IMG/VR virus record: IMGVR_UViG_2531839476_000020
DNA length: 25,625 nt
Reading direction: 5' to 3' (one strand)
Source of the DNA: a virus
Lineage: Duplodnaviria; Heunggongvirae; Uroviricota; Caudoviricetes
Every line of letters begins with the position of its first letter. The first letter of the stretch is position 1. A program made the position numbers and the translations under genes. The notes under the pieces are model-generated. The model searched no databases, was not told the origin of the DNA, and saw nothing but the letters and a program-made list of their open reading frames with translations. Of the stretch, positions 9,331-9,743 are shown piece after piece.

Positions 9331-9585
9331 TGTGCAGCTCCCGTGCTGATGAGATAATAATTTTGTGATGTGGTTTTCATGGATTCCCCCTCACATGGCT
9401 GGTGGCCTCCCCAAAGGCTGCCAGCCTCCCTTCTGATTCAGCTCCTCTGAAAAATCACTCTTCCAGGAAGAACCCTTTTCGTTTCTCAGCGCCTGAGCGC
9501 TTTGTACTACCTTGCTGATACGGGCGTTTTTTTAAATTGCGCCCTTAAGACAGTGATCTACTTAACCAATGGATCTCTCCTGTTG

Positions 9586-9646
9586 GAAAAGACCCTATTC
9601 CTGCCCCAACACCCAATCCCCCCTTACCCCCCTTACCCTCTTCCCC
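9586..9646. repeat. strand-asymmetric polypyrimidine tract with repeated C-runs (G-runs on the minus/mRNA strand)
   Basis: + strand reads CCTATTCCTGCCCCAACACCCAATCCCCCCTTACCCCCCTTACCCTCTTCCCC; the minus strand carries GGGG / GGG / GGGGGG / GGGGGG / GGG / GGGG tracts including the direct repeat TAAGGGGGG x2. Confidence 0.5.
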
Positions 9647-9743
9647 ATAAAAACGTACTACTTCCCTAGTACACATGAGGAGTTGGGTCAGTTGGTTGCC
9701 AACCTGAACAGGCACCTTTAAGCCTGCTTCTGTTCGGGTACCT

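Follow-up and report, generated by a model that had tools for sequence, protein, structure and literature searches.

A conserved strand-specific G-run element beside the helicase-primase genes of Eru1-type enterobacterial prophages as a candidate replication-initiation region

Our analysis of a 25,625-nucleotide (nt) stretch of viral DNA (IMG/VR record IMGVR_UViG_2531839476_000020, here called the window) points to a non-coding element of approximately 300 nt, with a tract of G-runs as its invariant core, located between the small gene ORF102 and the helicase gene of a prophage replication module. The window corresponds to an Escherichia coli lambdoid prophage, and positions 9331-9743, where no gene is found over 413 nt, are part of its early-right operon on the minus strand and match prophages of VR50 and other strains with 100% identity. 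The replication module is of the Eru1 type, with a superfamily 2 (SF2) helicase and a Toprim primase, and we read the element together with ORF102 as the initiation cassette of modules of this type. The element may be, in particular, their replication-initiation (origin) region, with the G-runs acting either through a transcription-coupled R-loop and G-quadruplex (G4) or as a site for ORF102, and on the strength of sequence comparison we assign to this reading a probability of roughly 0.45. Such an element of about 300 nt, next to the helicase-primase genes of enterobacterial prophages including Shiga-toxin phages, is so far undescribed, as the searchable literature on STM0899, the Fels-1 origin, ENT39118 and G4s in lambdoid prophages holds no description of it.

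The core of the element is a G-block of eight G-tracts at 9593-9646 on the minus strand, which is the RNA-like, non-template strand of the early-right operon. An earlier note on this DNA had reported a block of C-runs here, and the plus strand is in fact C-rich over 9593-9646. On the minus strand, from 9646 to 9593, the sequence is GGGGAAGAGGGTAAGGGGGGTAAGGGGGGATTGGGTGTTGGGGCAGGAATAGGG, that is GGGG-AAGA-GGG-TAA-GGGGGG-TAA-GGGGGG-ATT-GGG-TGTT-GGGG...GGG, with two G6 runs, at 9632-9627 and 9623-9618, that form a conserved pair around a TAA spacer, and with CCCCCCTTA repeated 2.3 times in tandem at 9618-9638 according to TRF. Apart from the (G3+N1-7)x4 motif at 9618-9646, the 25.6-kb window has no canonical G4 motif on its two strands; dinucleotide shuffles (n=200) contain 0.2 such motifs on average. 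The G4Hunter peak, -2.4 with the G on the minus strand, is stronger than the maximum of 2.32 reached among the 200 shuffles. GC skew falls to -0.875 in 9610-9669, and the G-block 50-mer is the most purine/pyrimidine-skewed of the window, with 18% purine on the plus strand, about 4 standard deviations off the mean. The region is untranslated and contains 35% G and 14% C over 150 nt, and its best 50-mer has 74-94% purine. When ViennaRNA was run with G4 energies, a G4 was predicted in the minimum free energy (MFE) structure of 7 of 10 variants, and in the window it ties with the ordinary fold.

Relatives of the element were gathered by exact 24-mer search, degenerate pattern search of IMG/VR, protein-seeded search with one genome per species, and helicase tblastn. 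Because conserved boxes of the element, including the CUUUUCCAACAG box described below, were used as degenerate patterns, their conservation is partly explained by their use in finding the sequences; the G-block was in no pattern. In all 125 distinct ORF102-to-helicase intervals so obtained, which span Escherichia, Salmonella, Klebsiella, Pantoea, Serratia, Yersinia and others, a G4+N1-10G4+ motif is found on the sense strand, 70-168 nt past the ORF102 stop codon, and never on the antisense strand, with G4Hunter scores of 1.56-2.72 for the sense strand against 0.24-1.4 for the antisense. The pair of G-runs is kept even where the flanks no longer align, as GGGGAGGGGG in Fels-1, GGGGGTAAGGGGG in the Shiga toxin 2a (Stx2a) phage ArgO145 and GGGGGGTTGGGGGG in Klebsiella, and likewise as GGGGGGAAAGGGGGG in Serratia phage OS31, GGGGGG(G)TAAGGGGGG(G) in Morganella and Erwinia, and GGGGGAAAGGGGG in a plasmid-borne Klebsiella prophage. 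Among 91 window-type sequences, 2 of 29 sites in the G-runs are polymorphic, compared to 11 of 27 in the loops (p=0.004) and 160 of the 360 other positions (p=4e-5), a pattern of polymorphism from which we conclude that the G-runs are under purifying selection and under stronger constraint than the loops. The G4 potential raised in the earlier note is therefore borne out by G4 prediction as a computed property that is strictly strand-specific and evolutionarily maintained, with invariant G-runs and variable loops. Run lengths drift from G6 to G9 between otherwise near-identical prophages, which could be due to slipped-strand events or to homopolymer sequencing error; if this variation is real, the tract would be hypermutable in length with its G identity fixed.

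It is possible that part of these homopolymer length differences between isolates reflects sequencing error, but the idea that the whole tract is a chance low-complexity sequence, an artefact or decayed coding sequence is effectively refuted, given that the tract is present in every one of the 125 relatives, from many genera and with finished genomes included, and that the selection on its G-runs is significant. A coding function on either strand was also rejected. Open reading frames (ORFs) of 50-56 amino acids (aa) do run over the G-block on both strands, but they are not genes, since close relatives differ by single bases in the length of the G- and T-runs and the frames are broken as a result; ORFs starting within the block, moreover, stop at different places among types when compared by eye. 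The absence of a convincing ORF, which the earlier note had also stated, holds with a sole small coding exception outside the G-tract, a 19-codon upstream ORF (uORF) at 9380-9321 discussed below.

The element is also consistently linked to replication genes. In 28 diverse loci from IMG/VR, GenBank and RefSeq, it adjoins the helicase and primase genes in every case and is accompanied by ORF102 in 27 (62-96% aa identity), the 28th contig ending just upstream. The cI and cro genes of these loci differ from one another or cannot be recognised. Among species-level loci found through ORF102 and inspected, the same arrangement was seen in 20 of 22, with one additional locus that carries a small extra ORF and one that is a truncated prophage remnant. 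An excised complete 37-kb Klebsiella phage has no other recognisable replication gene. Matches on plasmids were considered as possible independent replicons and discarded, since these are prophages, either excised or misassigned, that do not help to localise the origin.

A comparison with more distant phages shows what can take the place of this cassette. Helicase relatives with 56-61% identity (Proteus, Vibrio phage 1.233.A and Pseudoalteromonas phage HS5) have neither ORF102 nor the G-block, and their slot directly upstream of the helicase-primase genes is occupied by a small protein of the helix-turn-helix (HTH) type and by clear direct repeats. The Vibrio slot protein scores above the Pfam cutoffs for RepL (32 bits vs 20.3) and HTH_36, that of HS5 is RepL by NCBI annotation alone with no Pfam match, and that of Proteus has sub-threshold HTH matches only. 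The direct repeats are ACGACAGAACCTGTCGC in the Vibrio phage, of the AACGACAGGATCTGTCTC type in Proteus, and four copies of ATACTCTATAGCGGT in Pseudoalteromonas HS5 (L157 1920-2060; L182 790-830; L183 175-290), and are probably the origins or operators of these relatives. Judging from gene order and homology, two alternative cassettes fill one slot, either ORF102 with the element or a RepL/HTH-type protein with iterons. Because the helicases and primases are homologous in both groups, the contribution of the RepL-type cassette must come from something else in Eru1-type phages, and ORF102 with the element is the only candidate for that contribution, as no other iteron-like array was found in the replication module and the 37-kb Klebsiella phage lacks any other recognisable replication gene. 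The earlier note had suggested a replication origin at this place, and that suggestion gains indirect comparative support from the linkage to helicase and primase across mosaic phages and from the RepL/HTH-type proteins and iterons in the slot of distant relatives.

Like the probable RepL/HTH iteron origins of these three relatives (compare also P1 oriL/RepL), the element sits in the slot upstream of homologous helicase-primase genes and consists of non-coding repeats by a small protein gene. It differs from them in having no winged HTH initiator and no set of at least three direct repeats, and in presenting, in place of these, two palindromes, a pair of G-runs and an unrelated Arg-rich protein with three predicted helices. 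The element adjoins and is co-inherited with the replication genes, as iteron origins are, but the only repeats it offers are two flanking sites about 151 bp apart, the 9-nt G-run repeat in 2.3 copies, and an A7 tract. Paired palindromes flanking the G-block, two to three GATC sites and the A7 tract together make for an origin-like architecture, and the R-loop-prone composition of an untranslated stretch with 35% G, 14% C and its G-clusters on the non-template strand suggests opening and priming driven by transcription. G-clusters so placed are known to promote R-loops and the formation of G4s or hybrid G4s.

If the element does work as an origin, initiation might proceed as follows. Transcription from the early-right promoter (pR) would traverse the long untranslated G-rich, C-poor stretch, and the two G-runs on the non-template strand would favour a stable R-loop together with a G4, either intramolecular or formed as a DNA:RNA hybrid. 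The duplex would in this way be held open, providing an RNA primer and a single-stranded landing site for helicase and primase, and specificity could come from the hairpins, from the palindromes, which lie about 150 bp apart and differ between types, and from ORF102, which might directly recognise the G-runs or the conserved TAGATC box. Two long G-runs are the reported requirement for a co-transcriptional DNA:RNA hybrid G4 (PMC4176368), and 125 of the 125 relatives possess them, on the sense strand only. At the mitochondrial CSB II (conserved sequence block II), an RNA or DNA:RNA hybrid G4 with a very stable R-loop leads to the replication primer (PMC3488243, PMC4176368). The phage element shares with CSB II two long G-runs 1-3 nt apart on the non-template strand, within an untranslated transcript beside the region where replication starts or, in the phage, would start; it differs in being transcribed by the E. 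coli RNA polymerase and in its extra G-tracts, flanking palindromes, hairpins and small protein, and termination, primer and R-loop are here predictions only. The closest resemblance is offered by the Fels-1-type GGGGAGGGGG, which we take to be very similar to the CSB II form, where the G-runs are split by a single A.

A likeness can also be drawn to ColE1 RNA II and to the R-loop origins of T4 and T7, where origin activity depends on a transcript from an upstream promoter kept hybridised to its template. Masukata and Tomizawa reportedly found in 1990 that a G-run of the structured ColE1 pre-primer RNA pairs with a C-run of the template, and the transcription-primed origins of ColE1, T4 and T7 need no dedicated initiator protein. 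The phage element differs from these in having no sequence similarity or Rfam match to them and in being supplied with its own SF2 helicase and Toprim primase. A more extreme form of the proposal, that of a transcription-primed origin without any initiator, where a hybrid G4/R-loop is read or stabilised by ORF102 and both helicase and primase enter through this structure, seems unlikely to us.

Several points weigh against an origin at this site. The slot-replacement argument is one of position and not of demonstrated function, the element has no classical iteron array and no long AT-rich unwinding element, and origin activity is not described in the searchable literature for the element or for Eru1 phages. 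A canonical three-tier G4 occurs in only 78% of the 125 relatives and is absent from 22%, so that the universal property is the presence of two long G-runs. Other distant ORF102 homologues are not beside a helicase, and in one more distant ORF102 cassette of lower GC (L186; 40% GC in the non-coding part, 45% in the locus) the G-runs are replaced by an A-rich purine tract. Finally, the covariation and sense-strand G-U pairs of the hairpins that follow ORF102, to be described next, fit a role at the RNA level at least as well as one at the DNA level. In the L186 locus itself, the ORF102 homologue (109 aa) precedes a non-coding stretch of 263 nt (2831-3093), after which come an ORF of 182 aa, an HNH/NUMOD4 endonuclease and finally the helicase; the non-coding stretch retains the GTACATAGGCTAATAGAT box (GTACATAGG..TAGAT).

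The short inverted repeats seen in the earlier note are real, and include 9397-9408/9415-9426 and 9702-9711/9730-9739 as well as the hairpins at 9758-9730 and 9728-9707. The latter two, on the minus strand, are H_A1 (9730-9758; CUGUUUCGGGU-UUAAAGGU-ACCCGAACAG), which covaries and has the ORF102 stop codon within its loop, and H_A2 (9707-9728; AGCAGGC-UUAAAGGU-GCCUGUU), with an invariant 8-nt UUAAAGGU loop, and the element has one or two such hairpins just past ORF102, with covarying stems. In an anchored test of the H_A2 stem, on which our evidence for structure relies because MAFFT/RNAalifold alignments of diverged types are too poor outside the anchors to be trusted, 90.1% of cells pair across 58 distinct versions, compared to 73% after shuffling (0 of 500 shuffles reach the observed value) and 24-48% when the partner is slid, and compensatory changes are found in 97 cells and at 5 of 7 pairs in the same 58 versions. 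A separate count over 63 versions gave 35 wobbles that pair in the sense strand only against 11 of the antisense type. The covarying strand could be RNA or the displaced non-template DNA.

These hairpins argue for the main rival reading, which we hold to be doubtful though not far-fetched, namely that the element gives the pR transcript a structured leader RNA, about 250-330 nt long and acting in cis, that controls expression of the replication genes through processive antitermination, RNA processing or stability, or translation, with ORF102 as the Arg-rich RNA-binding partner of the UUAAAGGU hairpins and the G-runs as a conserved helix junction or a G4 switch. Besides the invariant loop, the strong covariation and the sense-only G-U pairs, a leader RNA would account for the position of the element inside an operon and directly after the gene for an Arg-rich protein, and for the apparent co-occurrence or joint loss, judged by eye, of the UUAAAGGU hairpin and the CUUUUCC box across types. 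In the predicted fold of every variant, the G-block is paired in its 5' half to CU-rich tracts from upstream and in its 3' half to CUUUUCCAAC, an occupancy of the two halves that leaves the two long G-runs between the helices. The fold z-score of the sense strand is -4.2, but that of the antisense strand is even lower (-6.05). No Rfam family, boxA, second copy or conserved terminator was found either, the palindromes flanking the G-block preserve sequence and not pairing, and the corresponding slot of distant relatives is filled by a RepL/HTH-type protein and iterons. Control of helicase translation is further argued against by the finding that an extra gene can separate the element from the helicase. 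A leader RNA and a pre-primer comparable to RNA II are not mutually exclusive.

In the gathering-threshold scan of the window against Rfam 15, the only match was to STnc100, elsewhere in the window, and an E-value scan of 9250-9850 gave only noise, with E above 2. No convincing conserved sigma-70 promoter or intrinsic terminator was seen inside the element. A tR1-like terminator could be suspected from GUACUAG..UAGUAC followed by GUUUUUAU, but this combination is confined to window-type sequences, and the U-run is missing from the Fels-1, Pantoea and Yersinia types. The other possibility put forward in the earlier note, that of an antitermination site similar to the N utilization (nut) sites, is not supported, as we found no boxA, no boxB-type pentaloop, no second (nutL-like) copy, no Rfam match and no conserved terminator to override. 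For boxA (CGCTCTTA / GCTCTTTAACAA), no match within 2 mismatches occurs in 9300-10400, and the three matches in the window lie elsewhere, at chance level; the hairpin loops are of 8 nt (UUAAAGGU) or 13 nt, with no 5-nt GNRA-like loop, and no second copy or other repeat of the element exists within the window. The element does resemble lambda nutR (boxA-boxB) and HK022 put in being a cis-acting hairpin RNA in the early-right transcript past cro with a small Arg-rich protein nearby, but unlike them it is present in single copy and is devoid of boxA, a GNRA-like pentaloop, an N-type gene under pL and a conserved terminator.

Two 18-bp palindrome-like GTAC sites (GTACYAG-N4-NTRGTAC) flank the G-block, one upstream of it at 9655-9672 (GTACTAGGGAAGTAGTAC on the minus strand) and the other at 9504-9521 (GTATCAGCAAGGTAGTAC on the minus strand), and their spacing is 146-158 bp in 113 of 125 sequences, mostly 150-151. 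Because nothing varies at their GTAC ends and no covariation is seen at the positions within, these sites fit double-stranded protein sites better than hairpins, and we rejected RNA hairpins for them on the same grounds and because sense and antisense wobbles are equal at site 2. The sequence of the flanking palindromes changes by cassette type: GTACYAG..CTRGTAC is that of the window type, and other types have paired sequences 139-164 bp apart, namely GACG-N6-CGTC in Morganella, ACGTCGCT in a Klebsiella prophage and inverted AATAATTTCAC in ArgO145.

Between these sites, on the minus strand, lie several other conserved features. The CUUUUCCAACAG box at 9580-9591 shows complementarity to the AAAGG of the hairpin loops and to GUUGGGG, in the 3' part of the G-block; it is invariant in close relatives and present also in protein-seeded loci, and the pairing is seen in MFE folds. 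The CATTGGTTAAGTAGATCACTGT box at 9550-9571 has a core, TAGATCNCTGT, that is common to nearly all ORF102-type cassettes. Two GATC sites are present in the window (9575-9572 and 9558-9555), and in relatives, where two to three sites recur, the mean is 2.06 within the first 330 nt. A hairpin of GGGCG and CGCCC with an A-rich 13-nt loop at 9522-9544 shows a compensatory change to GGGCA/TGCCC in Fels-1 and a G-U wobble in Fostie; other variants have a different hairpin and then an A-run. Further downstream, at 9458-9472, is the palindrome TTCTTCCTGGAAGAG, of which CTGGAAGAG is conserved, and the CTTCCTGGAAGAG palindrome recurs among cassette types; in Fels-1-type loci the 9458-9472 palindrome falls inside the start of an STM0899-like gene.

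The G-runs could in principle also be a mimic of the Shine-Dalgarno (SD) sequence, with tandem UAAGGGGGG motifs to which the 16S rRNA 3' end would pair, so that 30S subunits would be loaded or parked along the long untranslated spacer, either shielding it from Rho or RNases or feeding ribosomes downstream; more simply, Rho could be kept away from the untranslated RNA by its G-rich and C-poor composition. A duplex with the 16S tail is predicted at -11 to -21 kcal/mol, compared to -21.0 for a perfect SD, and the window's value is -14.6, with just 11 of 308 tiles at -14 or lower; GGGGGGUGAUC is found in OS31 and Erwinia, a GUG-UAG start-stop or a short ORF follows 5 nt past the second run in window-type sequences, and the region has 14% C and 35% G. 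Wobbles, however, allow any G-run to pair with CCUCC, no conserved start codon is seen by eye at SD distance across types, the extension into UGAUC is limited to few lineages, and neither the flanking palindromes nor the exclusive linkage to the replication module would be explained, which makes this account quite improbable. We also observed that the G-block of Erwinia typographi ends in GGGGGGGTGATC, that OS31 (L156 2360-2376) has GGGGGGTGATC, for which the anti-SD duplex is predicted at -21 kcal/mol, and that the 3' end of the E. typographi ORF102 homologue (L178 ~3255-3275) holds AAGGAGGTGATC, a perfect 12-nt complement of the 16S rRNA 3' tail.

Seen from the other strand, the C-rich block might be a Rho utilization (rut) site that halts antisense transcripts on their way from the replication genes to cro and cI. 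Plus-strand RNA would have about 35% C and 14% G over 150 nt, which is textbook rut composition, but the support is compositional only; no promoter-like site was seen on the plus strand just upstream of the block, a degenerate rut site would have no need of exact G-runs with free loops, and the hairpin wobbles favour the sense strand. We regard such a site as very improbable.

ORF102 (9744-10052, minus strand) encodes an Arg-rich protein of 102 aa and is the conserved first gene of the replication module. The protein matches phrog_852, a family of unknown function, and carries the invariant Arg-rich motif ENRARHEANxRLR; it gave no Pfam family above cutoff and no PDB sequence match, and an AlphaFold2 model predicts three helices with low confidence (predicted local distance difference test score of 59). 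No similarity to the Vibrio RepL-like protein was detected (hhalign probability 0.2%). A profile search collected homologues in 279 clusters at 50% identity; most of these are small proteins standing alone, and no informative fusion turned up. The earlier note had referred to this gene by its cII position, a label that turned out to be positional only, as ORF102 stays with the element and the helicase among differing cI and cro genes, and as OS31 has a separately annotated CII-like gene in addition; ORF102 is part of the replication module, not an analogue of CII.

The 114 nt that precede the helicase gene (9331-9444, minus strand) constitute a separate mosaic module, the helicase leader, with a stable hairpin at 9426-9397, a strong SD (GAGGGGG, 9392-9386) and the uORF (9321-9380), whose peptide is MKTTSQNYYLISTGAAQWS and whose stop codon overlaps the helicase ATG (9330) at ATGGAGCTGA, an overlap that suggests translational coupling. 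The peptide differs in relatives, is reduced to 12 codons in Yersinia phage YP3, and the leader is wholly missing from many cassette types. In Fels-1, phi467 and 38 E. coli genomes, on the other hand, the leader alone is conserved, with an STM0899-like gene (phrog_1347) placed between it and a diverged copy of the upstream element. This independent conservation of the leader places the G-tract in a separate element of about 300 nt (9445-9760), after ORF102. The inserted gene, of unknown function, is found in Fels-1, W224N and ArgO145 (L091 3124-3492, L003 3112-3486, L155 2127-2504), and its first codons hold the CTCTYCTGGAAGAG palindrome that in the window is non-coding (9458-9472).

In the window, the minus-strand order of the early-right operon is a pR-like promoter (~10353-10325), a cro/YdaS-like gene, ORF102, the geneless 413 nt, the helicase, the Toprim primase, a protein in Eru1C position and the Q antiterminator, and the S24/LexA-type cI gene (10422-11114) is divergent to it. 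In Shiga-toxin phages the Eru1 unit lies opposite cI and downstream of cro, and is made up of a DEAD/DEAH helicase gene followed by those for a Toprim and a DUF1367-type protein (PMC8044961), and domain matches in the window confirmed both the Eru1A-type SF2 helicase (DEAD/DEAH, ResIII; 7672-9330, minus strand; Eru1 as defined in PMC8044961) and the Eru1B-type Toprim primase (6703-7670, minus strand). The third gene gave no DUF1367 match in Pfam, so its assignment as Eru1C rests on position and size; its only match is phrog_6204, of unknown function, and RefSeq lists it as hypothetical. The Toprim gene is split by a 1-nt deletion at 7592-7596, where an A-run has five residues in the window and six in E. 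coli VR50, which has an intact 322-aa protein; the resulting ORFs are 7482-7670 and 6703-7485, and either the prophage is defective or the split is a homopolymer sequencing error. Near the pR-like promoter, the divergent cI-cro region contains a 12-nt tandem repeat (TCTCAATAGCTT, 2.1 copies, 10269-10293) and a hairpin at 10390-10369, and repeat, promoter and hairpin may possibly be operator sites. The small RNA STnc100 of Rfam is matched over its full length at 4732-4904 on the minus strand (RF02076; 108 bits vs a gathering score of 47), downstream of the gene for the Q antiterminator (5454-5855); with a strong terminator-like hairpin at 4707-4689, this is probably the pR'-proximal late leader RNA.

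The module of the window has the gene set of the Eru1 unit of Shiga-toxin phages (TL-2011c, O104:H4 type), with a third protein at the Eru1C position (PMC8044961), and in the Stx2a phage ArgO145, whose helicase is 66% identical, both an ORF102 homologue and the G-block are present. Published descriptions of Eru1, in contrast, name proteins only, and in them the element and ORF102 are undescribed and the origin is not assigned. Modules of this type are carried by the Shiga-toxin phages of highly virulent enterohaemorrhagic E. coli O104:H4 and O103:H25, for which searchable papers assign neither origin nor initiator (PMC8044961, PMC8951638). As toxin output tracks phage replication, the element and ORF102 offer a mutable candidate for the missing cis/trans pair. 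Should the element be a leader RNA instead, it would represent a new and widespread class of structured RNA of about 300 nt in prophages. If the G-runs do act through an R-loop or G4, it would be a rare natural G4-type structure under clear purifying selection in enterobacteria, and a mechanistic parallel to mitochondrial primer formation, that is, the counterpart of CSB II in a bacterial virus; and an initiator-less mode of action, if true, would define the origin of the Eru1-type Shiga-toxin phages.

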